Below, piece by piece: positions 8,376 through 59,349 of a DNA stretch of 64,000 nucleotides. Origin of the DNA: Shigella phage SSP1. Below the pieces are notes generated by a model. That model ran no database searches. It was given only the letters and a program-made list of their open reading frames with translations, and was not told the DNA's origin. Position numbers and translations under genes: made by a program. The DNA lies in the sequence record KY963424. One strand, 5' to 3'. Every line of letters starts with the position of its first letter. The first letter of the stretch is position 1.

Positions 8376-9032
8376 TTGGAAAAGTTCTTACAATTATTAA
8401 CGGTACTGCTCCAAGAAGCGAAAGATCCAGCATCGCTTCTTAAACGTCTGCTAACTATCTTAGTTGCTGTCATTATTTTCTTATTTGTTAGTAATACTAG
8501 TGAGGTGATGTCATTCTTAAAGACTTTCTCCACGTCTGCGGTTCTACAGGATGTTCAAACTCAAAGGATAAGTAATTTTCCTAACGTAGCTAGAGAAAAG
8601 AGCATGGTGCTTTTTTCCCAAACGGGTGCGGATGCTGTTTTTGTCGTAAAGTATAAACCCGATGCCGTTAATGATTATTCTAACATTATTGCATGGGAAA
8701 GCAATGCGCAATTAGATAGGACTGACTTGGCCGATAAAGCGGTAAATAAAACGTCTGAGCTATATAGACGACACTTAGACGGCTTTAACTACGCATCGGA
8801 CTTAAGTGTAAAAGTAAATAAATACATGGGGTTAAATATACCTGCGTTTAAGAATGTTACTTTTAATTACATATACACTTGTCCGTATTTCAATCTAAAC
8901 AATATCTATGCTGGATATATTGGTATTGCTTGGAAAGATAATCCTGTAGATGCAGCCGATTCTGAGAAATTTAACGAGTACTTAACAAAGCTCTGTTCCC
9001 CACAACAGAGATCTTTAGGTAGATCAATATGA
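8376..9032 (+). CDS. hol: holin (T5-type)
   Basis: 218 aa, N-terminal TM LLKRLLTILVAVIIFLFV, immediately upstream of and coupled to endolysin; TTG start. Confidence 0.7.
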   Translation: MEKFLQLLTVLLQEAKDPASLLKRLLTILVAVIIFLFVSNTSEVMSFLKTFSTSAVLQDVQTQRISNFPNVAREKSMVLFSQTGADAVFVVKYKPDAVNDYSNIIAWESNAQLDRTDLADKAVNKTSELYRRHLDGFNYASDLSVKVNKYMGLNIPAFKNVTFNYIYTCPYFNLNNIYAGYIGIAWKDNPVDAADSEKFNEYLTKLCSPQQRSLGRSI

Positions 9033-9442
9033 GTTTTAAATTTAGTCAAAGAAGTTTAGATAGATTAAAAGGTGTTCATCCAGACTTAGTAAGAGTAACT
9101 CATAGGGCTTTAGAATTAAGCCCGTATGATTTTACGATTACAGAAGGACTTCGTTCTCTAGAGCAAAGTGCTAAGAATATTGCTAATGGAACCTCGTTTT
9201 TAAAAGACCCAAGCAAATCCAAGCATGTTCAAGGTAGGGCGGTAGATTTTGCTCCACTTAAGGATGGAAAGATTGACTGGAATGACCTAGAATCCTTCAA
9301 GTTAGTGGCAGATGCCTTCTTCAAAGCAGCCGAAGAGCTAGGAGTAAAGATTAGATGGGGTGGTGATTGGAACCAAAATGGAAGTTATAAGGATGAAATC
9401 CAACGAGGTACTTTTGACGGACCACACATAGAACTAGTTTAA
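9029..9442 (+). CDS. lys: endolysin, L-alanyl-D-glutamate peptidase (M15 family)
   Basis: 137 aa; ALELSPYDFTITEGLRS..NIANGTSFLKDPSKSKH..DF..DWND matches recalled T5 endolysin. Confidence 0.85.
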   Translation: MSFKFSQRSLDRLKGVHPDLVRVTHRALELSPYDFTITEGLRSLEQSAKNIANGTSFLKDPSKSKHVQGRAVDFAPLKDGKIDWNDLESFKLVADAFFKAAEELGVKIRWGGDWNQNGSYKDEIQRGTFDGPHIELV

Positions 9443-9453
9443 TTAATAACTGA

Positions 9454-9477
9454 GGCGGGAATATTCCCGCCTTTTTA
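9454..9477 (+). terminator. intrinsic terminator
   Basis: Perfect palindrome GGCGGGAAT/ATTCCCGCC followed by TTTTT. Confidence 0.8.
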
Positions 9478-9519
9478 GGCAAAGGGGGCTTTAATAATTT
9501 TTGAAGATAGGAGAAAGCC

Positions 9520-9936
9520 ATGTTTGCAGAACTATTCCTTATGATGCTGCTGGGTATCTGGAAAATAAGTCTAGTAGTATTCGTTTTAATGATAGTCTTT
9601 ACTATCCTTGCATTAACTACCCGAAATAGCTTATTAATAAAGGTTATTCACGGACTAGAGTATATAATTATGGGTTCATTCGGCGTTTGTAAATGCAATT
9701 GCCATAGAGATACGAAATATTGTTGGTTATGGATGGAACTAGAGAATCCTATATCCATAGCTTTGGCTGTTTCATTCGGCATGATTCTTATGGCCCTTAT
9801 TCTAGCATTAATACCTTTGATGTTAGCTGGGGGAGTTACAGCGTATTTCACCCTTTTCTCCCCGATACTTATGTACTCAATTTACCCAATAACTATGTAT
9901 CTAGTTAGGAGAAGATTTATACATGCAGTAGATTAA
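9520..9936 (+). CDS. hypothetical polytopic membrane protein
   Basis: Several hydrophobic segments across 138 aa. Confidence 0.5.
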   Translation: MFAELFLMMLLGIWKISLVVFVLMIVFTILALTTRNSLLIKVIHGLEYIIMGSFGVCKCNCHRDTKYCWLWMELENPISIALAVSFGMILMALILALIPLMLAGGVTAYFTLFSPILMYSIYPITMYLVRRRFIHAVD

Positions 9937-9949
9937 GATAAAAAAGTAG

Positions 9950-9978
9950 TTGACTTTTAGCCCTAGTTATTGTATAAT
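9950..9978 (+). promoter_or_regulatory. T5 early-type promoter (TTGACT-N17-TATAAT)
   Basis: -35 9950-9955, -10 9973-9978, leader ACATAAATTAGTTAAGAGAGG. Confidence 0.75.
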
Positions 9979-10011
9979 ATATACATAAATTAGTTAAGAG
10001 AGGTATATATT

Positions 10012-10443
10012 ATGTCTGATCGTTTCTATACTCAAATGGCGGAACATTTTCGTATACCACATTACGAGCTAAACATTGCACTCCGTGACCATGACTCTCC
10101 TGAGTACAAAAAGCTCGAAAAGAAAGCGGAAAAATCTATTGATACAAAGGTAGGTGCATCTATGTCTAAGGGCAAAAAGTTAACTCGTCTTGATCTTAAT
10201 AAAATTTTAACTGAACTTTTGGGTACTGATATTGAAGGTGCTAAATTACCGCTTCTTGTACTAGAGACTATGATTAAAAAGGTCAAAAATAAAGAATATA
10301 AGAAGGTAGAAGTCCCAGAAGGCAGATTAAAGGCTCCTTATCAGGAAGCATTAACCGAGTGTTTGGGTGTAAATCTTGATCTGAGCACCGCAACAGTAAA
10401 AACCATGAAAAACTTCTTAGAGGCCATTAATAACTATGAGTAA
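10012..10443 (+). CDS. hypothetical protein
   Basis: ORF downstream of consensus promoter. Confidence 0.55.
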   Translation: MSDRFYTQMAEHFRIPHYELNIALRDHDSPEYKKLEKKAEKSIDTKVGASMSKGKKLTRLDLNKILTELLGTDIEGAKLPLLVLETMIKKVKNKEYKKVEVPEGRLKAPYQEALTECLGVNLDLSTATVKTMKNFLEAINNYE

Positions 10444-10726
10444 ATTAGTATATCTATTGAAAGGTTCCACGTGTCGTCCTTGTGCTCTTTTCGAGCCAGT
10501 ATTTGATAAAGTAGTCAGTGACTATAATTTGGAAGTCCACAAAGAGACTGATAATACAGAATTAATGCAGAAATTTGGTGTGCGCCAAGTTCCTGTAGTA
10601 GTTCTGGCAGATCGCTTACCTAATGGTCGAGTAGAAGCTAATCATATTTTGATTGGACGTCAGCTTCGTAAAGAAACTATGCACGAAGCTATTAAAAATT
10701 TCCTGGATGATAATCCAGAGGACTAA
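10436..10726 (+). CDS. thioredoxin/glutaredoxin-like protein
   Basis: CxxC active-site-like CRPC near N-terminus and VPVVV beta-strand typical of thioredoxin fold. Confidence 0.55.
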   Translation: MSKLVYLLKGSTCRPCALFEPVFDKVVSDYNLEVHKETDNTELMQKFGVRQVPVVVLADRLPNGRVEANHILIGRQLRKETMHEAIKNFLDDNPED

Positions 10727-10732
10727 TAAACA

Positions 10733-10765
10733 AAGCCTGATCTTAGCTGATCAGGCTTTTATTTT
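10733..10765 (+). terminator. intrinsic terminator
   Basis: 10-bp stem AAGCCTGATC/GATCAGGCTT then TTTTATTTT. Confidence 0.8.
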
Positions 10766-10767
10766 AC

Positions 10768-10796
10768 TTGCTTTTTGCTAAAAATTTTGGTATAAT
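10768..10796 (+). promoter_or_regulatory. T5 early-type promoter (TTGCTT-N17-TATAAT)
   Basis: -35 10768-10773, -10 10791-10796, leader ATAAATTGATAGGAG. Confidence 0.75.
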
Positions 10797-10824
10797 ACTT
10801 ATATAAATTGATAGGAGTATTACG

Positions 10825-11202
10825 ATGAACTATGCATATCTAATTATTAATAACAATGTAGTTTGTGGTACTCGCGCCGTTGAGATGGGTATTACAGAAG
10901 AAAAGTATAAGTCACTTCCAGAAAAGGAACAACAATATTATGTTGAAGAAGCTGCTTGGGAATATGCTGATGTTTATCCCGAACAACGTGAAGATCGCGT
11001 TACTATTGTTGTTTCTTTGGGGCTGGTTGGCTGTGATACCGAAGTTGATACAGACCTAGAGACTTTAGAAGAGTGGGAAGAATTAGACATTTCAGCTAAA
11101 AACTCTTTAATCCGTGAGGCTTTTTGGGAAGCAGTTGACTGCCATGTTGTCTTCGAGCCTAACGATGAGGAAGCTGAGAAGCATACTAACCAATGGGGAT
11201 AA
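10825..11202 (+). CDS. hypothetical acidic protein
   Basis: ORF downstream of promoter. Confidence 0.55.
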   Translation: MNYAYLIINNNVVCGTRAVEMGITEEKYKSLPEKEQQYYVEEAAWEYADVYPEQREDRVTIVVSLGLVGCDTEVDTDLETLEEWEELDISAKNSLIREAFWEAVDCHVVFEPNDEEAEKHTNQWG

Positions 11203-11206
11203 TTAA

Positions 11207-11452
11207 ATGTTAGCGGAACAAGCAAAACGTTTAGCCAGGATAAATAGAGCTGCACTCCTTAAGAGCAAGAAGAAAACGTATAAGTATATTAAAAAGAGAA
11301 TAGTTTCTTCCGTAGGTATTGGAGGTTCTTTTGTACAGTTTAATCGTGATGAAATTAGTTATGAAGCTATAAAAGCCCTCTATAAAGAGGGCTATACTCT
11401 CCAACTATCTAATGATTATGGCACAACTATTTTAACTGTTATTTGGGAATAA
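11207..11452 (+). CDS. hypothetical protein
   Basis: ORF with basic N-terminus. Confidence 0.45.
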   Translation: MLAEQAKRLARINRAALLKSKKKTYKYIKKRIVSSVGIGGSFVQFNRDEISYEAIKALYKEGYTLQLSNDYGTTILTVIWE

Positions 11453-12306
11453 TTATGAAAAAAGAATTTAACCTGCATGAAATGTTAGTAGTACCAGACG
11501 ATGCTAATCTGTTCTTCGTAGGAGATATTCACGGCTGTAATGATATGCTGGAAGATGCTCTTAAACTAGCAGGATATAAAGAAAAGCGTGACTATGTTGT
11601 CTGTGTTGGTGACTTAATTGACCGAGGCACACAAAACCTACAAGTCTTAGCCAAATTCCTATATAATCCACGTTTTATCAGTGTACGTGGTAATCATGAT
11701 CAATTTATGATTGTGGGAGATTGGGCTAATTGGATGTATAATGGTGGTATGTGGGCCATGAATGAACTAGATGCAGACACCATTAAAAATATTGCCGAAG
11801 ATATGGCTGAAAAAATGCCTCTACTTATGACTGTGCTACATAGAGGGAAAAAATATGGTGTAGCACATGCCGCAGTACCAATTGAATACAAAGAATGTGG
11901 CAATGAAGTAAAAATCCCTAATTGGGACAATCTAGTAGTACAACTAGAACATGCCACAGGTCATGAGTTAGGGGATCTTATGGATGCCTACCTATGGGAT
12001 CGTGATGTTATTCAAGATGTATTTTCCCATATGTCTGAGGATGCAAATCACCCATACTTTAAAAAGTATGCAGGGATGCCGGAAGAACTAATAAACGTAG
12101 TGCCAGAAGTTAAAGGGGTAGATTTCGTGTTTCACGGACATACTGGAGTTCCTTACCCACTTCTTTATAAGAACCGTGTTTATCTTGATACTGGCGGTGT
12201 TTTCAACGGGCAGTTGACGGTTGCGCAAGTTAACGATGAAACTGGCAAAATCACCACATTTACCACAGACAAAAATGATAGCTGCGGTGTACAGAGGATT
12301 CTTTAA
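11443..12306 (+). CDS. Ser/Thr protein phosphatase (metallophosphatase)
   Basis: Motifs GDIHGC, GDLIDRG, GNHD characteristic of PPP-family phosphatases. Confidence 0.8.
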   Translation: MGIIMKKEFNLHEMLVVPDDANLFFVGDIHGCNDMLEDALKLAGYKEKRDYVVCVGDLIDRGTQNLQVLAKFLYNPRFISVRGNHDQFMIVGDWANWMYNGGMWAMNELDADTIKNIAEDMAEKMPLLMTVLHRGKKYGVAHAAVPIEYKECGNEVKIPNWDNLVVQLEHATGHELGDLMDAYLWDRDVIQDVFSHMSEDANHPYFKKYAGMPEELINVVPEVKGVDFVFHGHTGVPYPLLYKNRVYLDTGGVFNGQLTVAQVNDETGKITTFTTDKNDSCGVQRIL

Positions 12307-12827
12307 TGAAAGTTCGCTTTTGGAGTGATCTCCACTTGGGGCATGCAAATATTACTAAATTCAGACCAATCTTCTCTACTATGGAAGAGCATGATGAATT
12401 TATTATGGATACTATTACATCCATGAAAGATAAGCGTACAGTATTCTATATTTTAGGAGACGCATTTGTATCTAGAAATGGTTTGGAGAAGTTCGAAAAA
12501 CTCTTTGGCAATGTTAGAACTACGTTAGTTCTGGGAAACCACGACTTAGAACGAGAAGGATTATCTTTCAAAGACTTAATAGGAGTTGTAGATAACGTAC
12601 AATCACTAGTTAAATATAAAAACTTCTGGCTTTCCCATGCTCCAATACACCCTGGGGAGCTGAGAGGTAAAAAGAACTTACATGGGCATACTCACTTTGA
12701 GTTAATGGGAGATCCTCGTTATATTAACGTTTGTGTCGAGTATGCAAAATCACCAGTACGCCTGGAAGACATCATGGGTGGTAAGTACACTTCGCATGAT
12801 AAAACTAGTTGGATGTTAGATGTCTAA
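12306..12827 (+). CDS. calcineurin-like metallophosphoesterase
   Basis: Motifs DLHLGH, GDAF, GNHD, HGHTH. Confidence 0.7.
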   Translation: MKVRFWSDLHLGHANITKFRPIFSTMEEHDEFIMDTITSMKDKRTVFYILGDAFVSRNGLEKFEKLFGNVRTTLVLGNHDLEREGLSFKDLIGVVDNVQSLVKYKNFWLSHAPIHPGELRGKKNLHGHTHFELMGDPRYINVCVEYAKSPVRLEDIMGGKYTSHDKTSWMLDV

Positions 12828-12935
12828 GTATATAGCTGAGGCTATTATTAAACGAATCATACAAGCGATAGCGATACTTATAATCATTTGTATTGCTATT
12901 GGTACGGGATTAGGCATTTTAATTAAAAGTTTTAT

Positions 12936-48504: not shown

Positions 48505-51350
48505 AAAAAATATTAGATAGTGCTAGAAACTACTTAAAAAATAATAGCAGAATAAAAACTGCTAGTCTAATTTCTCTAGAGTTGCCTAGCTCTACTGGTA
48601 CTAGTACTGCTTTTATTTATTTAACTGATTATTTTAGAGATGTACTATATAATGGTATTTTGTATCAGGCTGGTAAAGTTAAATCTATTAGCGCACATAA
48701 ACAAAACAGAGATTTATCTATTGGCAGTCTATCTTTTACTATTACGGGTACAGCGCAGGATGAAGTACTGAAATTAGTGCAGAATGGTGTGTCCTTTTTA
48801 GATAGAACAGTATCAATCCACCAAGCAATTATTACAGAGGATGGTTCTATTTTACCTGTAGACCCAGACACAAACGGGCCTTTATTATACTTTAGAGGTA
48901 GAATTACTGGTGGAGGTATTAAGGATAATATTAGTACTTCGGGAGTTGGAACCTCCACAATTACTTGGAATTGTTCTAACCAATTCTATGATTTTGATAG
49001 GGTTAATGGTAGATTTACTGATGATGCTTCTCATAGAGGGCTTGAAGTTGTAGCAGGGCAATTACTTCCATCTAACGGGGCTAAAAGACTTGAGTACCAA
49101 GAAGACTACGGTTTCTTTCACGCCAATAAAAGTATCTCTATTCTAGCAAAGTATCAGGTACAGGAGGAAAGATACAAGCTAAAGTCTAAGAAAAAGCTAT
49201 TTGGACTATCCAGAAGTTATAGTCTTAAAAAGTATTATGAGACTGTTACTAAAGAAGTAGATATAGATTTTAACCTTGCTGCTAAATATATACCAGTAGT
49301 TTATGGTGTGCAGAAAATACCTGGAATACCTATTTTTGCGGATACGGAATTACATAATCCTAATATAGTTTACGTAGTATATGCTTTTGCTGAAGGAGAG
49401 ATAGACGGTTTTCTTGACTTTTCCTTTGGTGATAATCCTATGATTTGTATGGACTCTAATGATAGCTCTGCTAGAACCTGCTTCGGTGTTAAAAAAGTAG
49501 CAGGAGACACCATGCAAAGAATAGCATCAGGAATATCTTCTAGTAGTCCTTCTGTGCATGGCCAGGAATATAAATATAACGATGGTAATGGTGATATAAG
49601 GATTTGGACTTATCATGGAAAAGCCGATCAAACTGCTTCTGAAGTATTAGTAAATATAGCGAAGGAGCGTGGGTTCTATCTCCAAAGTATGAACGGTAAT
49701 GGACCTGAGTACTGGGATGCTAGATATAAACTATTAGATACTGCATACGCGGTAGTACGCTTTACTATTAATGAAAATAGAACTGAGATCCCAGAAGTTA
49801 GTGCTGAGATTCAGGGTAAGAAGATAAAAATCTACCATTCTGATGGTAGAGTAACTGCTAATAGTACTAGTTTAAATGGTATTTGGCAAACACTTGACTA
49901 CTTAACTTCAGATAGGTATGGTGCAAACATTGCTATTGATCAGTTCCCTCTCCAACAATTGGTACAAGAAGCTGCTATCTTAGATATTATAGATGAATCT
50001 TACCAGGTATCTTGGCAGCCATACTGGAGATATGTTGGGTGGACTGATCCATTAGCAGAAAATAGGCAAATAGTACAAATGAATACTATTCTAGATACAT
50101 CTGAATCAGTATTTAAAAACGTGCAAGGTTTGCTAGAGTCCTACGGTGGGGCTATTAACAACTTATCTGGTCAATATAGGATTACTGTAGAAAAATATTC
50201 TAATACTCCATTAGAGATTAATTTTCTGGATACTTATGGTGATTTAGAGCTATCAGATACTACTGGTAGAAATAAATTCAACTCAGTTCAAGCATCCATC
50301 GTAGACCCAGCTCTTAGCTGGAAAACTAACTCTATTACCTTTTACAACTCTAAATATAAAGAGCAAGATAAAAATTTAGACAAAAAATTACAATTATCTT
50401 TTGCAAATATAACTAACTACTATACTGCTAGAAGTTTTGCAGACAGAGAGCTTAAAAAATCTAGGTATTCTAGAACCCTCTCATTTTCTTTACCATACCA
50501 ATTCATTGGTATTGAGCCTAACGATGCTATTGCATTTACATACGACCGTTATGGATGGGATAAGAAATACTTTTTAGTAGATGAAGTCGAAAACTCTAGA
50601 GAAGGAAAGATAAATGTTACTCTACAAGAGTATGGGGAAGATGTATTTATCAACTCTGATCAAGTAGATAATAGTGGTAATGATATACCAGATATTAGTA
50701 ACAATGTTCTTCCTCCTAGAGATTTTAAATATACCCCTACACCCGGTGGTTTAGTTGGTTCTATAGGAAAAAATGGTGAGCTATCTTGGCTTCCAAGTTT
50801 AACTAATAACGTAGTTTATTACTCTATCATGCATTCAGGTCATGCTGAACCCTATATCGTACAGCAACTAGAAACAAATCCCAATGAACGCATGATCCAA
50901 GAGATAATTGGAGAGCCTGCAGGTTTAGCAATATTTGAAATAAGGGCCGTGGATATAAACGGTAGAAGAAGTTCTCCAGTAACATTATCTATAGAACTTA
51001 ACTCTGCTAAAAACCTAAGTGTAGTATCTAATTTTAGGGTAACTAATACGGCTTCTGGGGATGTAACTGAGTTTGTAGGCCCAGATGTAAAACTAGCTTG
51101 GGATAGGATACCAGAAGAAGATATAATAGAAAGTATATTCTATACTCTGGAGATCTATGATTCTCAGAATAGAATGCTAAGAAGTGTACGTATTGAAAAT
51201 CAGTATACTTATGACTATTTATTAATGTATAATAAGGCAGATTTTGCTCTTCATAACAGCGATGCTCTAGGAATCAATAGAAAACTATATTTTCGTATTA
51301 GAGCAGAAGGAGATGATGGAGAACAGTCTGTGGAGTGGGCATCCATTTAA
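48501..51350 (+). CDS. baseplate hub protein (pb3-like)
   Basis: 949 aa as recalled for T5 pb3; follows distal tail protein. Confidence 0.8.
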   Translation: MKKILDSARNYLKNNSRIKTASLISLELPSSTGTSTAFIYLTDYFRDVLYNGILYQAGKVKSISAHKQNRDLSIGSLSFTITGTAQDEVLKLVQNGVSFLDRTVSIHQAIITEDGSILPVDPDTNGPLLYFRGRITGGGIKDNISTSGVGTSTITWNCSNQFYDFDRVNGRFTDDASHRGLEVVAGQLLPSNGAKRLEYQEDYGFFHANKSISILAKYQVQEERYKLKSKKKLFGLSRSYSLKKYYETVTKEVDIDFNLAAKYIPVVYGVQKIPGIPIFADTELHNPNIVYVVYAFAEGEIDGFLDFSFGDNPMICMDSNDSSARTCFGVKKVAGDTMQRIASGISSSSPSVHGQEYKYNDGNGDIRIWTYHGKADQTASEVLVNIAKERGFYLQSMNGNGPEYWDARYKLLDTAYAVVRFTINENRTEIPEVSAEIQGKKIKIYHSDGRVTANSTSLNGIWQTLDYLTSDRYGANIAIDQFPLQQLVQEAAILDIIDESYQVSWQPYWRYVGWTDPLAENRQIVQMNTILDTSESVFKNVQGLLESYGGAINNLSGQYRITVEKYSNTPLEINFLDTYGDLELSDTTGRNKFNSVQASIVDPALSWKTNSITFYNSKYKEQDKNLDKKLQLSFANITNYYTARSFADRELKKSRYSRTLSFSLPYQFIGIEPNDAIAFTYDRYGWDKKYFLVDEVENSREGKINVTLQEYGEDVFINSDQVDNSGNDIPDISNNVLPPRDFKYTPTPGGLVGSIGKNGELSWLPSLTNNVVYYSIMHSGHAEPYIVQQLETNPNERMIQEIIGEPAGLAIFEIRAVDINGRRSSPVTLSIELNSAKNLSVVSNFRVTNTASGDVTEFVGPDVKLAWDRIPEEDIIESIFYTLEIYDSQNRMLRSVRIENQYTYDYLLMYNKADFALHNSDALGINRKLYFRIRAEGDDGEQSVEWASI

Positions 51351-53407
51351 TGATTTCGAATAATGCACCAGCCAAAATGGTCTTAAATAGTATAATGACT
51401 GGATATACAATGGCATATGTCCAGCACTCTATATATACTGACTATGACGTTATTGGCAGATCTTTTTGGTTAAAGACAGGAGAAAGTGTAGATAGACGTG
51501 ATTATACTGGTATAGATACTTTCTTCGTAATGATTAATAATCTGACCCCTTCAACCTCTTATGAGATTCAAGGGGCTTTCTACGACTCTATTATTGATTC
51601 TGAACTGTTAGAGGCTAAGATTGGTATCAATCTCTCTAATGAGACTAACTTTAGGACAAAAGAGAAGCCAACAATTGTTGCAGCAAGATCTGAATCAGAA
51701 CCTGTGGATGTTGGGGTAGGTGCACCGATAGTTATCGTAGAAACAACTGGTGAAGCAAGCTACTGTACTATTGAGTTAAAAAGTACAGCTACTGAAGACA
51801 GTCCTTGGACTAAGTATTACATTGGTGCTTTAGGTTCTACTATTAAATTTGGTGGAGTTCCTATCGGAGATTACAAGATCAGAATATCTGGTCAAGTAAC
51901 TATGCCTGATGGTGTTACAGTTGATTCTTCTGGGTATTATGAATTCCCTAATATTTTAACTGTAGCGTATAATTTTGTTCCTCCTACTGCACCTATCAAT
52001 ATTGTTTTTAAAGCTGCACGAATTGCTGATGGTAAAGAACGCTATGATGTTAGAATTGAGTGGGATTGGGAACGCGGTGGCGGTGCTAATGTTCGTGAGT
52101 TCTTGGTTACTTATATAAACTCTGAAGAATACGGTAAGACTGGCTGGGCTAAAGCCCAAAAGATAAACGTTGGTGCTGCTAGAGCTGCAACAATTATATC
52201 CTTTCCATGGAAAGTTGAGCATACTTTTAAGGTATCATCAATTGCCTGGGGACCAAATAAGCAGGATATAACAGAATCAGCTCCTGTAACATTTATATTG
52301 AATGAAGATACTCCTCTAGACAACAGCTTTGTCAATGAGACGGGTATTGATGTTAACTATGCCTTTATTAAAGGCAGCATGAAAGATGGAGAAATCTGGA
52401 GACAGACATTCTTAATCGATGCAGCTACTGGTGCTATTAACATCGGTCTGCTAGATGAAGAGGGAAAAGCACCTATTTCTTTTGATCCTATAAACCGTGT
52501 TGTTAACGTTGATGGTAAAGTAATTACTAGAGATATTAATGCTGCGAATTTTATCATGACTAACTTATCCGGTAAGGATAATCCAGCAATTTATACTCAA
52601 GGTAAATCTTGGGGAGATAATAACTCCGGTATTTGGATGGGCATGGATAATACCTCTGCCAAAGCTAAGTTAGACATTGGTAATGCCACACAGTGGATTC
52701 GTTATGATGGTGATGTGCTACGTATCTCTAGTGGTGTAGTAATTGGGACACCAAATGGCGATGTAGATATTGGTACTGGGATGCAGGGTAAACAAACAGT
52801 ATTTGTTTATAAGTTAGCAACATCTCTACCCGCTAAACCACTAGAACAAGATTACCCGCCTCCTGGTTGGTCAAAAACTCCACCTAACCGTACAGATATG
52901 ACACAAAATATCTATGCAACTACGGGTACACTTGATCCGGTTACTAACAAACTTCTTGAAGGTACTAGCTGGTCTGATGTAGTTCAGTGGAGTGGTACTG
53001 AAGGTACTATTGGTGCAGATGGTCAAAGGGGGCCTGGCATGTATTCCTTAGGTATTCCAGGTCTTGGAGGCTGGGATGATGGACAAGCTAATGCCTTCTT
53101 CCAGAATAACTTTGGTAGTCCACCAGTTAGATATGATGTATTGACTGAGTTTAATAGTAATGCTCCGCAATCTGCATTTACTCGTCAATGGAATGGTTCC
53201 GGTTGGATTAACCCTGCAATGGTTCTTCATGGCAACATGATTGTTAATGGAACTGTGACTGCTGATAAGATTGTGGCAGGAAATGCCTTCTTATCACAAA
53301 TCGGTGTTAATATAATCTATGATAGAAATGCTGCGTTATCAGGGAACCCTGAAGCATACTATAAGATGAAGATAGACCTAAATAGTGGGTATATCCATAT
53401 AAGGTAA
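51335..53407 (+). CDS. central straight fibre / baseplate protein (pb4-like)
   Basis: About 690 aa following hub gene; alternative TAATG-coupled start at 51350. Confidence 0.7.
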
Positions 53408-53411
53408 AATA

Positions 53412-53834
53412 ATGAGTACAGAAAATAGAGTAATTGATATTGTTGTTGATGAGAAAGTACCTTATGGTCTTGTCATGCAGTTTATGGATGTTGATGATAG
53501 TGTCTACCCTCCCTCTGAAATACCTGTTAACCTAACAGGTTACTCACTTCGTGGAACTATTAAAGCAAGTCTTGATGAAGATGCAGAAACTTTAGCTACT
53601 TTTAAAACTCGTATAATCGATGCGGCTCAAGGAGCTGCTGCTATTAGCCTTAGTGTTGGAGATGTTAATAATATTGGTATTAAGGCATCCAAAGAGCGTG
53701 ATAAATATAACCCAAGACAACGTTTTGCAGGCTATTACGATATTCTAATGACCCGCGATGTTATTGGTTCAGAAGTCAGTTCTTTCCGTATTATGGAAGG
53801 AAAGGTTTATGTGAGTGATGGGGTAACTCAATAA
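53412..53834 (+). CDS. collar protein (p132-like)
   Basis: 140 aa immediately upstream of L-shaped fibre gene. Confidence 0.6.
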
Positions 53835-56800
53835 TGGCACTTAAAACTAAAATTATTGTACAGCAGATTCTGAACATAGATGACACTACAACTACTGCTA
53901 GTAAGTACCCTAAATATACAGTAGTTTTAGGAAATTCTATTAGCTCTATTACTGCTGGTGAATTAACTTCTGCTGTAGAAGCCTCCGCTGCTTCTGCGGC
54001 AGCAGCAAAAGGTTCTGAAATTGCTGCTAAAGATTCTGAGAATAAAGCAAAAGACTCCGAAATTATGGCGGGTATCTATGCAGATTCTTCCCAAACATCA
54101 GCTACTCAATCCGCAGCTTCAGCAGCAGAATCTGAGAAACAAGCTAGATTATCTCAGAAGAGTGCAGATGCTTCTGCTACATCAGCGGAAGAGTCTAAAG
54201 GATTTAGAGATTCTGCTGAACTAGCTGCTCAGAATGCTGAGAACAGTCGTAGACTTGCTGAACAAGCTAAGTCTGCTGCGCAAGCTGCTCAAACAGCGGC
54301 TGAAACTGCTAAGACTGGTGCTGAAACAGCAAAAGCTGGAGCAGATGCTGCTGCTACAACTGCTGGAGAACACGCTGCTGCTGCGAAACAATCAGAATTA
54401 AATGCTAAAACTTCTGAGACTAATGCTGCTAGCTCTGCTACAGAAGCGGGGGACAAAGCTATTGATGCTACTACTGAAGCAGATCGTGCTAAAGCTGAAG
54501 CAGATCGTGCAACTCAGATTGTTGATAGTAAACTTGATAAGGTAGATATTTCTGGTTTCATCAAAGTTTATAAGACTAAAGCAGAAGCCGATGCGGATGT
54601 TGGAAGTCGTGTACTAGGGGAGAAGATCCTAGTATGGAATCAAACTGATTCAAAATATGGGTGGTATAAGGTCACTGGTACTGCCGAAGCTCCTGTTCTA
54701 GAATTAGCAGAAATAGAGCAAAAGCTAGTTTCTATTAATAACGTTCGTGCAGATGACGCGGGTAACGTACAGATTACTCTTCCTGGTGGTAACCCCTCTT
54801 TATGGCTAGGTGAAGTTACTTGGTTCCCTTATGATAAAGATTCAGGTGTTGGCTATCCCGGTGTTCTGCCTGCCGATGGCCGTGAAGTCCTTCGTGTAGA
54901 CTACCCAGACACTTGGGAAGCCATCGAAGCTGGTCTAATTCCTTCTGTATCAGAAGCTGAATGGCAGGCTGGTGCAATACTCTACTTCTCCACTGGTGAT
55001 GGTTCTACAACCTTCCGTTTACCAGATATGATGCAAGGGCAGGCTTTCCGTGCACCAACTAAAGGTGAAGAAAATGCTGGTGCTATCAAAGAACAAATTC
55101 CTTATATCACCACTGTGAATGGAATTAGTCCTGCTGACGATACTGGAGCTATTAAGCTCCCTTACGTGGCGATGGTTAATGGAACTATTATACCAGATGA
55201 GAATGGAAACCTAGCACTAGGTAACGTTGTTACTAAGAATGTTTGGAATGGTACTGATGGAGAAGTTCTACTTCGTGGTGCTTTTGGTTTAGGTGGTGCT
55301 GGTATTGCGTTAAATGAACCTGATATAGTATCATTTTTTAAGGCTATGAGAGCTTTTGGCTCTGGGTATTATCGCAATGATACGGGATTTGATGGCTTGC
55401 CTGCATACGCTGCAGGTTTCTACTCCAGGGTAGCAGATACTAACTCGTTTATCTGCCCATCGTATGGTAGTGCTTCAGTATTTGTAGCTGCAATCAATGA
55501 TGCTGGTTTAGATAGTGAAAACCCTATTGTTCATACTAATATTCTTTATGGTACTGTTAATAAGCCAGATCTAAATGGTGATACTAATGGAGTTCTTAGT
55601 GTTGGTAAAGGCGGTACTGGAGCTACCACAGTTAGTGCTGCTAAGAAAGCTTTAGAAGTTGGTGGAGTTTTCTGTAATGATAGCCCAGCTGATGCTGCTT
55701 TCAACTCTCTCCAGAGCCCTGCTGGTATTCATGAGTTTAGACTAACTAATGAGGGGTTATGGGGTGTATGGAAGAAGGGGGAAGAAACGGTAGCTGCGTT
55801 GCCTATAGGCTCTGGTGGTACAGGAGCTACTGATAAAGTTGCTGCACGTGATAACTTTGAATTGGGGTATCATAATACTCCTAGATTTACTGGGGTAGAT
55901 CTATCTAATCCCGAAAGCATACCCTATAGTGGTATCCTTAATCTAAACAGGCTAAAGGAATCTGATCAAAATGTTATTACTCAGGGTAGAATCTATCATG
56001 AGATGCAATCAGATTTGGCTAAAATTACCCTTCATATTAACAATACTTTAAATGGTGCAAACCGTTATATACAGTTTGTAGAAAATGGTGATTTAACTGG
56101 GCTACAGAATGTACATGCAGTTAACTACCTTGCAAGTGGTTATGTTACAGCCCAGGGATGGATCAAAGGCGGGGAAAAAATCTATATACAGCAAACAGGT
56201 GGGGGCAACAGGGAAATTAGTATGGCTGTACCTACTCCTAATAATGACCCTGGTGCTGGTTCTTGGGTTAACTTACTACAGGGTAACTGGTATAACGGTT
56301 ACTGGCAAGTAGGTGGTATCCGTGGTAGTGGACCGGACTTAGACTGCCTCCGTATTGGAGTTAACAACTCTGGTACAGATTGGAAGGAATTCAATTTCTA
56401 CAACTCCTATGGTGGCCATATAACTGCTCCAAAAGGTTTTCGTGGTCAGTGTACTCAAGGATATTGGGGCTTAGAGTGGGATTACATGGGCGCCCCATTT
56501 CATGCAGAGTCTGTAGCAAATAATGATGGTGGTTGGTCTCCTATAGTATCGGGAGGTTCTTTATCCGCTGGTGGATATCATTTAAGAATAGGCCTTGGCT
56601 GTATCTCTAATGGTAACGCTGCATGGCCTGACGCTGCTCTTAAGTTAAATGGGGATGGCCAGTTCCACCGTTCATTCAACTTTAGAACAAACGGTAGCGT
56701 GTATACTTGGGGTAATGATCCTTGGGGAGGTAACTATGACTTTGCTATGAACCCTTCTTCAGATAGAGATATCAAAAGAGATATTAATTATGATGATGGG

Positions 56801-57184
56801 TTAGCCTCCTATGAGAATATAAAGCAATTTAAACCTACCACATTTATCTATAAACTAGATAAGTATAATCGTGTACGCCGTGGTGTTATTGCTCAAGATC
56901 TTTATAAAATTGACCCTGAGTACGTAAAACTGGTTCCTGGTTCCCCTATCATAGAAACTCCAGAACATCATTGCTGTGACGAAAAAACTGAGAACGTAGA
57001 AAGTAAGATCATTGACTATGAGGATGATACTTTAGCTCTGGATATTAACCCGATCGCTATTGATACGGCATTAGCAGTTCGTTACTTGTCTCTAAAGTTC
57101 GAAGAGTCCCAGGAAGAACTGAAGTCCGTTAAGGCAGAACTGGCAGAGTTAAAAGCTCTAGTAGCCACTCTGGTAAATAAGTAA
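53834..57184 (+). CDS. L-shaped tail fibre protein A with C-terminal intramolecular chaperone (S74-like) domain
   Basis: 1116 aa; Ala/Glu/Ser-rich N-terminal coiled region; GGTGATT repeats; C-terminal DRDIKRDINYDDGLASYENIKQFKPTTFIYKLD...GVIAQDL chaperone domain. Confidence 0.8.
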   Translation: MALKTKIIVQQILNIDDTTTTASKYPKYTVVLGNSISSITAGELTSAVEASAASAAAAKGSEIAAKDSENKAKDSEIMAGIYADSSQTSATQSAASAAESEKQARLSQKSADASATSAEESKGFRDSAELAAQNAENSRRLAEQAKSAAQAAQTAAETAKTGAETAKAGADAAATTAGEHAAAAKQSELNAKTSETNAASSATEAGDKAIDATTEADRAKAEADRATQIVDSKLDKVDISGFIKVYKTKAEADADVGSRVLGEKILVWNQTDSKYGWYKVTGTAEAPVLELAEIEQKLVSINNVRADDAGNVQITLPGGNPSLWLGEVTWFPYDKDSGVGYPGVLPADGREVLRVDYPDTWEAIEAGLIPSVSEAEWQAGAILYFSTGDGSTTFRLPDMMQGQAFRAPTKGEENAGAIKEQIPYITTVNGISPADDTGAIKLPYVAMVNGTIIPDENGNLALGNVVTKNVWNGTDGEVLLRGAFGLGGAGIALNEPDIVSFFKAMRAFGSGYYRNDTGFDGLPAYAAGFYSRVADTNSFICPSYGSASVFVAAINDAGLDSENPIVHTNILYGTVNKPDLNGDTNGVLSVGKGGTGATTVSAAKKALEVGGVFCNDSPADAAFNSLQSPAGIHEFRLTNEGLWGVWKKGEETVAALPIGSGGTGATDKVAARDNFELGYHNTPRFTGVDLSNPESIPYSGILNLNRLKESDQNVITQGRIYHEMQSDLAKITLHINNTLNGANRYIQFVENGDLTGLQNVHAVNYLASGYVTAQGWIKGGEKIYIQQTGGGNREISMAVPTPNNDPGAGSWVNLLQGNWYNGYWQVGGIRGSGPDLDCLRIGVNNSGTDWKEFNFYNSYGGHITAPKGFRGQCTQGYWGLEWDYMGAPFHAESVANNDGGWSPIVSGGSLSAGGYHLRIGLGCISNGNAAWPDAALKLNGDGQFHRSFNFRTNGSVYTWGNDPWGGNYDFAMNPSSDRDIKRDINYDDGLASYENIKQFKPTTFIYKLDKYNRVRRGVIAQDLYKIDPEYVKLVPGSPIIETPEHHCCDEKTENVESKIIDYEDDTLALDINPIAIDTALAVRYLSLKFEESQEELKSVKAELAELKALVATLVNK

Positions 57185-57190
57185 GAGTAT

Positions 57191-57209
57191 AGGGGAGTAA
57201 TTCTCCCCT
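57191..57209 (+). other. intergenic hairpin between fibre genes
   Basis: Stem AGGGGAG/CTCCCCT with 5-nt loop. Confidence 0.5.
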
Positions 57210-57227
57210 ATTTACTAAGGAAATACT

Positions 57228-59315
57228 ATGTCACGTAATTTAATGCCTAAATCTGGCGCAATGGCGCCTTACGTAGTAGTTAACAGAGACGCTGCAGTTG
57301 CTGGTGTTTTCTCTGTCGATGGAGAGGCTGGTGCTGTTGTACTAACTTCCAAATATCTACAAATTACAAAATATACTACTGATAAAGCTGCTACTGATGC
57401 ATCTATTAATAGTATTAATGAATCAATTGGTAATATTAATACTGCATTAGGTGGTATTAATACTACTTTAGGTACTAAAGCTGCTAAAGGTGCTAATAAC
57501 GATATTACAGAATTAAATGCACTGACTAAAGCTATTACTATTGCTCAGGGTGGTACTGGTGCTACTACGTTAGAGGGTGCTAAGAAGGCCTTACAAGTTG
57601 AGCGCCTTCGCCAACAGAGTAATGGAACTTTTATTGTATCTCCTAATGAGAAATATTCTTTATTTATATATGATAGTGGAGATTTTGGTCTACTTGATAA
57701 TTCTACCGCAGCAGTACAAGCATTAAAAGTTGCATTTGGTGGTACTGGAGGAACTACTCCAAAAGCAGCAAGAAAAAATCTTAATGTTCCGGTTGGCGCC
57801 TCGGCTGAAAAAATTGCTGATGGGGAAGATGTTCTAAACTATATTGCGGTTGCAGGTCAAAGTGGATACTATTCATCTGGTGAATTAATAGTTAATGGGC
57901 CTCCTAAGCAAGAAGGTTGGTGGGCCTATAACTTCCACTGTCATGGTGTGGATATTAACGGAGCTGCTCAGTATGGTACACTAAAAGCTACAGGAGCACT
58001 TGGAAGTACTTGGATCAATATTCTAGATGGTACAGACAACTGGAGAGGATGGAAAGAGCAATTTAATACCCAGTCTATCATACAGTTTTCAAATGGGGGT
58101 ACTGGTGCTACTTCTAAAGATGGTGCAAGAACTAACCTGGATATTGACAGATTCAAACAAAGTGCTACTGAGACTATGGTATATGCTCCCGGAAGTGGAT
58201 TTAGAATCACTGCTAGGCCTAATGGGGAATGGGGTACATGGAGAGATGATACCGGTACTTGGGTTCCTTTGGCTATTACAGCCGGGGGTACAGGAGCTAA
58301 TTCTGCCGACCAAGCTAGAAAAAATCTAGAGTTAACAGAGTGGAACCTCTTATCCTCTATGGATGGTAAATACCCTAATGGGTTTAATTTTGACACTCTT
58401 GCTGTAAATAGTAAGTTTACTGTTCCACCTACTGGAGGAAATATTGTTGGTACCCGACCATACCAACAAATAAACGGGTTGGAAGACGCTTGGTTTTTCC
58501 TAGAGACTCTAGTACACCCAGATCCTAACTATAGAATGCAAAGAGCCACCACGTTTACAGGAACTTGGAAAGGTTCAGTAAGCGTACGTATTATGGAGAA
58601 TGGTACTTGGGGTGTATGGCAACAAGCTCATGGGGCTTTGGGGCAATTAGTTAATGCAATCTCTAACCGAGGTGCCATTAGAGTACAGGGGGCTGCAAGT
58701 GGGGAATCTGGGTCACTAATAAGTGGTGCTATTACTGGTGGTTCATTTACTGATTGGAGATCAAGACCTACAGGAGTACTAGTAGAACATACTGGATTGG
58801 ATTCTGCATCTTCTGTATTTAAAAGCGTAATGTGGGGTGTAGACTGGTTAGCCGGTATGGATGTAGTAGGCTGGAGTGCCGGCGGTGCACAGTTAAACAT
58901 GTATTGCAGGGGGGCTGAGTTTCGTTTTGATAGCGCTGGTAATGCTGTTGGTGGTAACTGGGTAAGCAGTTCTGATATTCGCATGAAAGCCAATCTTAAG
59001 GAAATTGAGAATGCTCGTGATAAGGTTAAGTCTCTAGTAGGCTATACATACTACAAGAGAAATACTCTAGCAGAAGAAAGAGATACCGTGTACAGTACTG
59101 AGGCTGGTGTTATCGCTCAAGATGTGCAATCTGTTCTCCCAGAAGCAGTGTACAAGATTGAGCCACAAAAAGAAGACAGTATGCTTGGTGTCTCCCATGC
59201 AGGTGTCAATGCTCTTCTAGTTAATGCTTTTAATGAACTTAACGAAGTTGTTGAAAAGCAGCAACAAGAGATTGATGAGCTTAAGAAACTGGTAAAACAG
59301 TTACTTGATAAATAA
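57228..59315 (+). CDS. second tail fibre protein (LtfB-like) with C-terminal intramolecular chaperone domain
   Basis: 695 aa; four GGTG(A/G)(T/N) repeats; C-terminal SSSDIRMKANLKEIENARDKVKSLVGYTYY...GVIAQDVQ chaperone domain. Confidence 0.75.
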   Translation: MSRNLMPKSGAMAPYVVVNRDAAVAGVFSVDGEAGAVVLTSKYLQITKYTTDKAATDASINSINESIGNINTALGGINTTLGTKAAKGANNDITELNALTKAITIAQGGTGATTLEGAKKALQVERLRQQSNGTFIVSPNEKYSLFIYDSGDFGLLDNSTAAVQALKVAFGGTGGTTPKAARKNLNVPVGASAEKIADGEDVLNYIAVAGQSGYYSSGELIVNGPPKQEGWWAYNFHCHGVDINGAAQYGTLKATGALGSTWINILDGTDNWRGWKEQFNTQSIIQFSNGGTGATSKDGARTNLDIDRFKQSATETMVYAPGSGFRITARPNGEWGTWRDDTGTWVPLAITAGGTGANSADQARKNLELTEWNLLSSMDGKYPNGFNFDTLAVNSKFTVPPTGGNIVGTRPYQQINGLEDAWFFLETLVHPDPNYRMQRATTFTGTWKGSVSVRIMENGTWGVWQQAHGALGQLVNAISNRGAIRVQGAASGESGSLISGAITGGSFTDWRSRPTGVLVEHTGLDSASSVFKSVMWGVDWLAGMDVVGWSAGGAQLNMYCRGAEFRFDSAGNAVGGNWVSSSDIRMKANLKEIENARDKVKSLVGYTYYKRNTLAEERDTVYSTEAGVIAQDVQSVLPEAVYKIEPQKEDSMLGVSHAGVNALLVNAFNELNEVVEKQQQEIDELKKLVKQLLDK

Positions 59316-59320
59316 AAGAA

Positions 59321-59349
59321 AACCCCAGTGGATTGCCCACTGGGGTTTA
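59321..59349. terminator. bidirectional intrinsic terminator between convergent genes
   Basis: 12-bp stem AAACCCCAGTGG/CCACTGGGGTTT, A-run upstream and T-run downstream. Confidence 0.85.

Follow-up and report, generated by a model that had tools for sequence, protein, structure and literature searches.

The L-shaped lateral tail fibres of Shigella phage SSP1 are encoded by an operon of three adjacent genes, ltfC-ltfA-ltfB, on the + strand of the 64,000-nt window analysed here (record KY963424). The first, ltfC (53412..53834), encodes a fibre-anchoring collar protein of 140 aa that matches PF23926 (LtfC, E 1.7e-14) and is 93% identical to LtfC of phage DT57C. Its stop codon overlaps by 1 nt the start of ltfA (53834..57184, ATG), whose 1116-aa product is a tail-attached fibre protein matching the tail fibre family phrog_5481 over its full length. 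A 43-nt spacer, with a putative 9-bp hairpin (57189..57211) followed by an AAGGAAA ribosome-binding site, leads to ltfB (57228..59315, ATG), which encodes a second fibre protein of 695 aa (phrog_12321, full length). The original prediction of two fibre open reading frames at 53834-59315, with these lengths, is borne out exactly. Just beyond ltfB, a 13-bp GC-rich hairpin lying between A and T runs (59320..59348) is a likely bidirectional intrinsic terminator closing the operon; the equivalent site is annotated in T5.

The gene order is that of DT57C, as are the neighbours: pb4 precedes ltfC, and a convergent dut block (dUTPase, flap endonuclease D15, D14) follows ltfB. Over 6 kb, the locus shares 99% nucleotide identity with vB_Sen-E22, 98% with NR01 and 97% with SPC35, T5-like Salmonella phages (Tequintavirus) from which it differs essentially not at all; LtfB shares 100% identity with its vB_Sen-E22 counterpart. 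The SSP1 locus is thus of the SPC35/NR01/vB_Sen-E22 type, built on the DT57C plan, and a two-protein lateral fibre is ordinary for this group. We regard the arrangement as already known, because the 2016 DT57C paper lists SPC35 as a phage with two ltf genes (PMC4728585). In the databases, the proteins of these three relatives carry generic labels such as 'chaperone of endosialidase' and 'tail fibers protein'.

LtfA is conserved in its proximal part and variable beyond it. Residues 1-222 (53834..54499) comprise N-terminal strands, predicted to insert into the LtfC ring, and an Ala-rich trimeric coiled coil; this region is 85-97% identical across all two-gene relatives and 86% identical to that of DT57C, whose LtfA N-terminal structure has been described (PMC10713586). 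The whole protein matches that structure (PDB 8hqz_d, E 1e-244). Residues 223-442 (54500..55159) form a domain like that of the Kuravirus proteins phiEco32 gp14 and SU10 gp12. It is 89-96% identical in two-gene relatives, 89% identical to the phiEco32 gp14-like domain of DT57C (aa 223-471 there) and about 43-45% identical to ORF31 of Kuravirus 172-1 (E 6e-46), and it matches 7z47_D (E 4e-41). We propose that it is the docking site for LtfB. Further out, aa 680-975 (55871..56758) are the variable distal shaft and receptor-binding tip. Identity there is only 3-33% in five of six two-gene relatives and reaches about 50% with lateral fibres of Drexlerviridae; no Pfam domain was found in this region.

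LtfB begins with a short peptide, aa 1-48 (57228..57371), resembling phiEco32 gp15 and proposed as its anchor. This peptide is 92-98% identical in two-gene relatives (92% in DT57C) and 71% identical to that of Kuravirus 172-1 ORF32, the match to which extends over aa 1-56 (68% identity, E 5e-17). A compact beta-rich domain occupies aa 189-278 (57792..58061; AF2 pLDDT ~81-92); it has no Pfam match, and Foldseek returned only weak galectin-like matches (probability 0.35-0.41). The variable receptor-binding tip, aa 372-581 (58341..58970), resembles the distal subunit gp37 of T-even phages and Drexlerviridae fibre tips. Its identity among relatives spans 8-99%, and aa 462-561 form a hypervariable patch that is replaced in GSW6.

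Both proteins end in an S74 intramolecular chaperone domain, aa 976-1116 in LtfA (56759..57181) and aa 582-695 in LtfB (58971..59312). The original prediction of such domains at both C-termini, made without domain searches, is upheld by an HMM search with PF13884 (Peptidase_S74): LtfA matches at aa 976-1032 (E 8.7e-10, 39.2 bits) and LtfB at aa 582-642 (E 1.9e-13, 50.9 bits), both above the gathering threshold of 22 bits. The catalytic Ser/Lys dyad, with Lys five residues after Ser, is intact in each (S976/K981 and S582/K587). Both dyads align with the 'TSDARLK' motif of T5 Ltf and with the dyads of DT57C LtfA and LtfB, and in 69 LtfB homologues neither S582 nor K587 varies. Each protein is predicted to cleave itself just before the serine, S976 in LtfA and S582 in LtfB.

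Between the conserved proximal parts and the tips lie six copies of a short glycine-rich module. A six-frame scan of the 64-kb window with the pattern GGTG[AG]..A[RK]..[LF] finds exactly these six and none elsewhere. They start at aa 593 and 661 in LtfA (A1, GGTGATTVSAAKKAL, 55610..55654; A2, GGTGATDKVAARDNF, 55814..55858) and at aa 108, 171, 290 and 353 in LtfB (B1, GGTGATTLEGAKKAL, 57549..57593; B2, GGTGGTTPKAARKNL, 57738..57782; B3, GGTGATSKDGARTNL, 58095..58139; B4, GGTGANSADQARKNL, 58284..58328). The count of two in the first protein and four in the second had been predicted correctly; the literal pattern given for them was one residue short, the true form being GGTGAT-x4-A(R/K)xxL, and exact GGTGAT occurs in only four of the six (B2 has GGTGGT and B4 GGTGAN). 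A lone GGTG arises in 14% of residue shuffles of LtfA and LtfB. Chance is not a plausible origin for the six full modules, because these 15-residue elements form three pairs, spaced by 63-68 aa, that align as homologous units of ~100 aa. In the AF2 model each module is a strand, a turn and a helix (pLDDT 80-92), and Foldseek returned only fibre shaft and knob folds, for example those of R-pyocin fibres and T4 gp34. We found no description of the module by name in the literature searched.

How does this locus compare with better-known fibres? As the original prediction stated, T5 has a single fibre gene: its ltf, which encodes a 1396-aa protein (pb1), precedes a terminator and convergent genes. 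It occupies the same slot, after pb4 and ltfC, and its product carries a C-terminal S74 domain with the same Ser/Lys motif, but it lacks the docking domain, LtfB and the GGTGAT modules. Similarity of T5 Ltf to LtfA is confined to aa 1-81 (65-70% identical); with two genes present, a T5-type single-gene fibre is ruled out here. DT57C and DT571/2, in contrast, share the gene order, LtfC, LtfA 1-442, the LtfB anchor and S74 domains on both proteins (PMC4728585, PMC10713586). In alignments to DT57C, the tail anchor, coiled coil and docking domain of LtfA (aa 1-442) are 88% identical, and the proteins are non-homologous beyond about aa 442 of LtfA and aa 120 of LtfB. DT57C has 19-aa tandem repeats and PF07484 collar domains that are absent here, and one module per protein where SSP1 has two and four. 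Its ltfA and ltfB distal parts share long DNA repeats that fuse both genes, whereas the distal parts are only distantly paralogous in SSP1. The Kuraviruses are podoviruses in which adjacent genes (phiEco32 gp14/gp15, SU10 gp12/gp13, 172-1 ORF31/32) encode the same pair of docking domain and anchor peptide. In these phages the proteins join the virion through an adaptor rather than LtfC and are otherwise unrelated (5-23%); 172-1 ORF31 also bears GGTGA modules.

The LtfA docking domain and the LtfB anchor are inherited together, Kuravirus podophages included. Among 26 informative T5-like loci, nine have both, 16 have neither and one has the docking domain only; the anchor accompanies the docking domain in all nine two-gene loci, and neither is present in the single Ltf of phage 2-3. 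Co-inheritance of the pair, and its absence from single-fibre phages, favours a branch over an end-to-end joint. We consider it highly probable that ltfC-ltfA-ltfB specifies a fibre on the DT57C plan, with LtfB docked on LtfA as a side branch and two S74-assisted tips per fibre. A branched fibre like that of DT57C had been suggested from the sequence, and gene order, LtfC, the N-terminal 442 aa of LtfA, the LtfB anchor and the two S74 domains all speak for it. In DT57C there is genetic evidence for branching: LtfA and LtfB have independent receptor specificities, and both are lost only in ltfA mutants (PMC4728585). The cryo-EM map of DT57C resolved the N-terminus of LtfA only and showed no robust density for LtfB at the collar (PMC10713586).

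Two other geometries have to be weighed against the branch. LtfB might extend LtfA end to end from its distal end, in the manner of the proximal and distal halves of the T4 long fibre, giving an elbowed fibre with one working tip. The wording of earlier papers leans this way: the SU10 paper calls the homologues proximal (gp12) and distal (gp13) long-tail-fibre proteins with one elbow between them, and the BASEL paper speaks of a 'proximal fiber' bearing a second fibre. LtfA, however, possesses a full distal region of its own and an S74 domain; once the latter is cut off, a free C-terminal tip would remain. Moreover, the anchor of LtfB, which holds 92-98% identity, tracks LtfA 223-442 and not the replaced distal 300 aa of LtfA, and the independent specificities in DT57C also argue against a serial joint, which we judge improbable. 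Alternatively, LtfB could form a separate set of fibres that join the tail tip or collar directly. Contoured at a low level, the DT57C map does contain weak fibre-like densities in contact with the tail tip, but its authors read them as folded-back C-termini of LtfB (PMC10713586). The LtfA strands that enter the LtfC ring have no counterpart in LtfB, and no N-terminal similarity was found between the two proteins. The LtfB anchor is, in addition, common to podoviruses with unrelated tails, always beside a domain like LtfA 223-442. We think independent attachment very improbable, more so than the serial arrangement.

In the branched fibre that we favour, LtfA would trimerise through its Ala-rich coiled coil and thread its first ~40 residues into the collar that LtfC forms round the tail tip. 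If aa 223-442 of LtfA are the platform on which the N-terminal ~48 residues of LtfB dock, then LtfB would hang from LtfA as a side branch; physical branching is in this sense what we infer. Each protein would continue as its own module-built shaft, with module pairs flanking small beta units, and end in its own non-enzymatic receptor-binding tip. Folding of each tip trimer would be assisted by the C-terminal chaperone, which would then excise itself.

What might the tips recognize? The LtfA and LtfB tips are paralogues by profile comparison (HHalign probability 99.7%, E 6e-27), the sole BLASTP match between the C-terminal regions of the two proteins being ~24% identical. The T5 tip gave no sequence-profile match to either, and AF2 models the tip region with low confidence. 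All receptor-binding parts have been swapped relative to DT57C; being unlike, they do not allow the host specificities of DT57C to be transferred to this phage. With two tips, the virion may have two reversible specificities for glycans, most probably O-antigen, and glycan-bound tips would keep the phage on the cell surface until its central fibre meets the outer-membrane protein receptor. That the tips bind glycans, and the assignment of a ligand to each, is our inference. We also considered the 'T-shaped' fibre of the BASEL study, with a Gp12-like RBD1 and a T5-like RBD2, and rejected it on its Gp12-like/tail-collar domain (PF07484, SSF88874). Collar (PF07484) gave no match in LtfB, either over the whole protein (E<=0.01) or in aa 185-290 and 372-582 (E<=10), and in LtfA a 15-residue match at aa 386-400 scores 18.6 bits, below the cut-off of 24.

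The one result that this analysis adds to a known locus concerns the modules. Mosaic junctions between relatives cluster at them: nine of the 19 classes of DNA junction lie within 12% of the sequence (p ~2e-4). In LtfA, junctions lie at aa 598, 604 and 612 (A1) and at aa 666 (A2, in four loci). In LtfB they lie at aa 113-119 (B1, six loci), at aa 171 (B2) and at aa 294 and 308 (B3), and in five homologues a protein-level block ends at aa 369 (B4). Module number also varies between orthologues. The proposal that the modules are recombination hotspots is therefore supported in an evolutionary sense, breakpoints falling on modules beyond chance, and not in the sense of a higher frequency of crossing-over. 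Selection favouring correctly folding chimeras could explain the clustering equally well.

Are the modules, then, purely structural elements that keep the trimer in register, with junctions falling there because such chimeras fold and not because crossovers are more frequent? Their defined strand-turn-helix fold is what this would lead one to expect. Module glycines are invariant or nearly so in 69 homologues (G171 and G172 of B2 are invariant), which implies structural constraint. Within this genome, the modules share only 61-72% identity at the DNA level and exact stretches of 6-15 nt (random mean 6.5 nt, 95th percentile 8), and are poor substrates for classical homologous recombination. Against this, the conserved codon string GGTGGTACNGGNGCTAC has breakpoints between phages at its 3' edge, and in NBSal003 one double unit is duplicated in tandem, as unequal crossing-over between modules would give. 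We see the purely structural reading as evenly balanced between right and wrong; it does not compete with the branched fibre and merely qualifies the word 'hotspot'.

On the branched-fibre explanation, the modules would be seams where phages trade distal cassettes and where units are gained or lost. There is a precedent of a kind: distal fibres of T-even phages are said to recombine through short conserved motifs placed around variable adhesin segments, at the points of exchange. Short conserved motifs lie beside variable segments in both systems, but the T-even motifs are different ones, His boxes and Gly-rich islands. More speculatively, GGTGAT...A(R/K)xxL may be a standard splice seam common to the lateral fibres of unrelated families (Demerecviridae, Kuravirus and Drexlerviridae-type tips), with the codon string as the actual crossover site. 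This extension is doubtful. If true, the modules would be a mechanistic recombination hotspot, beyond a mere tolerance of chimeras, allowing phages to swap receptor-binding cassettes in register and to alter shaft length by gain or loss of units.

Two adjacent fibre genes lie on the plus strand: ltfA (53834-57184), encoding 1116 aa, and ltfB (57228-59315), encoding 695 aa. The coordinates and sizes in the original prediction were exact. Directly 5' of ltfA, and overlapping it by one base, is the 140-aa ORF of ltfC (53412-53834; Pfam LtfC, E 1.7e-14), the collar protein gene. The straight-fibre protein pb4 and the tail-hub protein pb3 are encoded 5' of ltfC; a small ORF, dUTPase, the flap endonuclease D15 and D14 are encoded on the opposite strand 3' of ltfB. 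This is the gene order of T5. The 6-kb region is present in 351 phage records, chiefly Salmonella and Escherichia T5-like phages. Because it is 97-99% identical to such Salmonella phages (vB_Sen-E22, 99.0%; NR01, 98.2%; SPC35, 97.1% at the nucleotide level), the window can be assigned by sequence to a Tequintavirus-type genome. LtfB is 100% identical to the vB_Sen-E22 protein.

Several features border these genes. The pb4 ORF (51335-53407) was called from a GTG at 51335; since its PHROG match begins at residue 6 and its orthologues have 685 aa, the true start is probably the ATG at 51350, overlapping the pb3 stop codon (51348-51350). The 43-nt spacer between ltfA and ltfB holds a 9-bp GC-rich hairpin (57189-57211) just 5' of the ltfB ribosome-binding site, which could stabilise the transcript or tune the relative expression of LtfA and LtfB; the spacer is replaced by a one-base overlap of the genes in STP-SP2, oldekolle and NBSal003. 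A 13-bp hairpin at 59320-59348, with an A-run on one side and a T-run on the other, separates ltfB from the convergent minus-strand ORF; it is a predicted bidirectional intrinsic terminator, and a terminator is annotated at the equivalent place in T5. At the left end of the window, genes for tRNA-Ile(GAT) and tRNA-Met(CAT) (780-856 and 953-1028) presumably mark the edge of a T5-type tRNA cluster.

Both fibre proteins end, as predicted, in an S74-like chaperone domain: Peptidase_S74 (PF13884) scores 39.2 bits at LtfA 976-1032 and 50.9 bits at LtfB 582-642, against a curated cut-off of 22. When the C-termini are aligned with those of T5 Ltf, DT57C LtfA and DT57C LtfB, a serine and a lysine five residues on are invariant (S976/K981 in LtfA, S582/K587 in LtfB). 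In the chaperones of endosialidase and T5 pb1, self-cleavage by this Ser/Lys pair frees the chaperone after the trimer has folded. Across 69 aligned LtfB homologues, the columns that never vary are S582, K587, G627 and a pair of glycines in the modules.

The resemblance to DT57C that had been proposed holds for the proximal parts of the fibre. LtfC is 93% identical to its DT57C counterpart, LtfA 88% identical over aa 1-442 (the N-terminus of DT57C LtfA is PDB entry 8hqz), and LtfB 92% identical over aa 1-48 and 76% over aa 49-107; beyond these points similarity is gone. A branched fibre was put forward for DT57C in 2016: the N-terminal ~45 aa of LtfB, which are related to phiEco32 gp15, would be bound by an LtfA segment (aa 223-471) that is related to phiEco32 gp14 (PMC4728585). 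The corresponding elements here are a docking domain (LtfA 223-442) and an anchor (LtfB 1-48). Kuravirus 172-1 encodes matches to both in adjacent genes: ORF31 is 43% identical to the docking domain (E 6e-46) and ORF32 is 68% identical to LtfB 1-56 (E 5e-17), with the remaining LtfA and LtfB segments at 5-23% each. A PDB search with LtfB 1-130 returned no match to the anchor peptide; the sole matches were to the 'GANxDIT...GGTGA' shaft motif (8vbx_R, 7z47_D).

Does LtfB branch from LtfA, or do the two proteins follow one another in series? The serial arrangement is the main rival, and the paper on SU10 uses the corresponding wording, 'proximal/distal'. We judged between them by the co-variation of segments among relatives. 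In the six two-gene relatives compared, identity remains high in LtfB 1-48 (92-98%) and LtfA 223-442 (89-96%) but drops to 3-33% in LtfA 680-975 of five of them. An anchor that is unchanged when the LtfA tip is replaced disfavours seating of LtfB on that tip. LtfC served to retrieve further T5-like loci; of the 26 informative ones, nine have docking domain and anchor, 16 have neither and one has the docking domain without ltfB. LtfA also has a complete distal region and its own chaperone. The final ~230 residues of LtfA and LtfB are paralogues (HHalign probability 99.7%, E 6e-27), so LtfA is predicted to end in a working tip of its own. Published work on DT57C likewise favours branching over series: both specificities are lost in ltfA mutants only (PMC4728585), and LtfB density is absent at the collar in the cryo-EM map (PMC10713586). 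We consider a serial fibre very unlikely. The branched fibre of the original prediction is an inference, well supported by the co-inheritance of docking domain and anchor, by the distal region of LtfA and by the DT57C genetics and cryo-EM.

Other loci show different arrangements. The locus with a docking domain and no ltfB (8423-11674 of IMGVR_UViG_2974606035_000001, our L018) encodes a single 1083-aa DT57C-LtfA-like fibre in which the docking domain is kept (91% identical), with dut directly after the fibre gene. It looks like a natural case of the collapse from two genes to one that DT530(1) underwent in the laboratory. In Epseptimavirus phage 2-3, the only Ltf starts as LtfA 1-201 and continues with further coiled coil, then two modules and a distal part like that of LtfB; both docking elements are absent. 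Five T5-like loci (L022, L024, L026, L027 and L028, about 8423-12900) carry another two-ORF fibre set after ltfC (783-816 and 557-586 aa); these proteins show no similarity to the docking domain or LtfB anchor and contain no GGTGAT modules. They may represent a second, independent route to a two-protein lateral fibre.

A six-frame scan of the whole window found exactly six GGTG[AG]-x-A[RK]xx[LF] modules, starting at LtfA aa 593 and 661 and LtfB aa 108, 171, 290 and 353. The counts of two and four had been correctly predicted; the pattern had been written one residue short, and two of the six are not literally GGTGAT. The modules are paired at a spacing of 63-68 aa. Aligned with one another, the three pairs prove to be homologous ~100-aa units, each with a 'G.WG.W' beta segment between its modules. 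An AlphaFold2 model of the LtfB monomer, built from the 69-sequence alignment, is confident over aa 100-370 (pLDDT 80-92). In it each module runs from a short strand through a turn at GGTG into a 7-residue helix. The two modules of a pair enclose four or five short strands, and a distinct beta-rich domain (aa 189-278) separates one pair from the other. Orthologues have one, two or three modules in LtfA and one, two, four or six in LtfB, whereas T5 Ltf lacks them entirely. Among the matches listed in a search of the tail-fibre literature, no title or abstract names the GGTGAT module; in PMC9659904, which matched 'GGTGA' and 'tail fiber', the term is a piece of primer sequence.

The six-module LtfB is that of NBSal003 (L007 / L011, 6788-9307), 839 aa long, in which a 144-aa double unit is tandemly duplicated with both motif sequences unchanged in each copy; apart from this lengthening of the shaft the protein is orthologous. 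A second conserved motif, 'GANNDITELNALTKAITIAQ', stands just before module B1 (57492-57548, LtfB aa 89-107). It also precedes GGTGA modules in SU10 gp12 (7z47_D) and in a 'Tail fiber (gp47)' chain (8vbx_R), and appears to be a more widely shared shaft element. In LtfA, aa ~40-222 (53950-54500) form an Ala/Ser/Glu-rich coiled coil coded by many imperfect 20-34-nt direct repeats (families D1-D4, D6 and D8). During host adaptation of a T5-like Salmonella phage, the N-terminal part of Ltf acquired deletions as well as a 28-aa insertion (residues 56-97 and position 164) (PMC12541327).

Are the modules recombination hotspots, as had been suggested? Within the genome this is unlikely. The six modules share 61-72% identity in their DNA over 44-71 nt, with exact common runs of 6-15 nt (random window pairs: mean 6.5, 95th percentile 8), and would be weak substrates for classical homologous recombination. 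DT57C-style exchange between modules of one genome is unlikely because the locus has no long direct repeats, the best being 71 nt at 72% identity; in DT57C, unlike here, long ltfA/ltfB repeats fuse the two genes (PMC4728585).

Between phages, the suggestion is supported in an evolutionary sense. A breakpoint test on every BLASTP HSP end was biased, short HSPs being the repeat unit itself, and was superseded by one limited to blocks with ≥100 aa and ≥60% identity in 238 homologues. Module zones hold 5 of 14 distinct block boundaries in 7% of LtfA (p 0.002) and 6 of 8 in 23% of LtfB (p 0.003). At the DNA level, 35 of the ~350 public T5-like ltf loci gave 19 junction classes, nine of them on modules that make up 12% of the sequence (binomial p about 2e-4, with classes counted as independent and shared ancestry ignored). 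Several of the ten off-module classes fall at the ltfB start codon (8 loci), near the ltfA 3' end and at the docking-domain end (aa 424-440); the rest are in the coiled coil and the LtfB tip. At base level, identity holds across the GGTGGTACNGGNGCTAC codons and then collapses in about ten bases. Because junctions cluster on the modules and their copy number varies, we read them as seams of a mosaic. The overlap may reflect a raised crossover rate, or chimeras joined there may survive better because the seam is structurally neutral. That fibre motifs, when conserved, mark exchange points is an old principle from the T-even and P2 literature.

What do the two tips do? Pfam searches of the whole proteins found S74 and no enzymatic domain, and searches of four sub-regions at E<=10 added a sub-threshold Collar fragment only. 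A depolymerase or esterase was dropped on these grounds; the 9cod SGNH match falls in the coiled coil. A T5-like receptor-binding domain found no support at the sequence level, the LtfA and LtfB distal profiles giving no match to T5 Ltf 970-1396 (HHalign probability <1%). Foldseek matched the LtfB model to fibre shafts and knobs only (R-pyocin fibres, T4 gp34, Mu and Pa193 fibres), with weak galectin matches (probability 0.35-0.41). Lateral fibres of T5-like phages bind O-antigen reversibly and are required on smooth hosts only; according to a later paper on SPC35, GtrABC glucosylation of O-antigen shields S. Typhimurium. Given the lack of an enzymatic domain, the shaft and knob folds and this O-antigen binding, the two tips most likely provide dual, non-enzymatic glycan recognition preceding the central-fibre receptor step. 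The DT57C specificities do not carry over to these proteins, whose tips are unrelated to those of DT57C.

The two-gene branched lateral fibre of T5-like phages is already known. The 2016 paper described the architecture, the S74 domains, the phiEco32 link and the instability of the locus, and named SPC35 as a phage with two ltf genes (PMC4728585). Recent Salmonella phage papers treat LtfA plus LtfB as the normal state, and a survey from 2025 reports complexes of a proximal and an attached fibre in Tequintavirus and Gordonclarkvirinae, with receptor-binding domains often horizontally transferred. With sequence 97-99% identical to GenBank genomes, the discovery value is small; the value lies in annotation and engineering. 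Databases name these genes 'chaperone of endosialidase' or 'hypothetical', where ltfC, ltfA and ltfB are proper. The host labels of two records look doubtful, since both carry an enterobacterial T5-like fibre locus: PQ773600.1 ('Corynebacterium phage CPphiVTCCBPA_418', 41 kb; 83% nucleotide identity over 5.2 kb) and MG065642.1 ('Campylobacter phage A148', 113 kb; 48% protein identity). For retargeting Salmonella phages, the seams offer natural cut sites for swapping receptor-binding cassettes. Cuts would fall at the ltfB start codon, where the docking domain ends (LtfA aa ~424-442) and along the 3' edge of any GGTGAT module.
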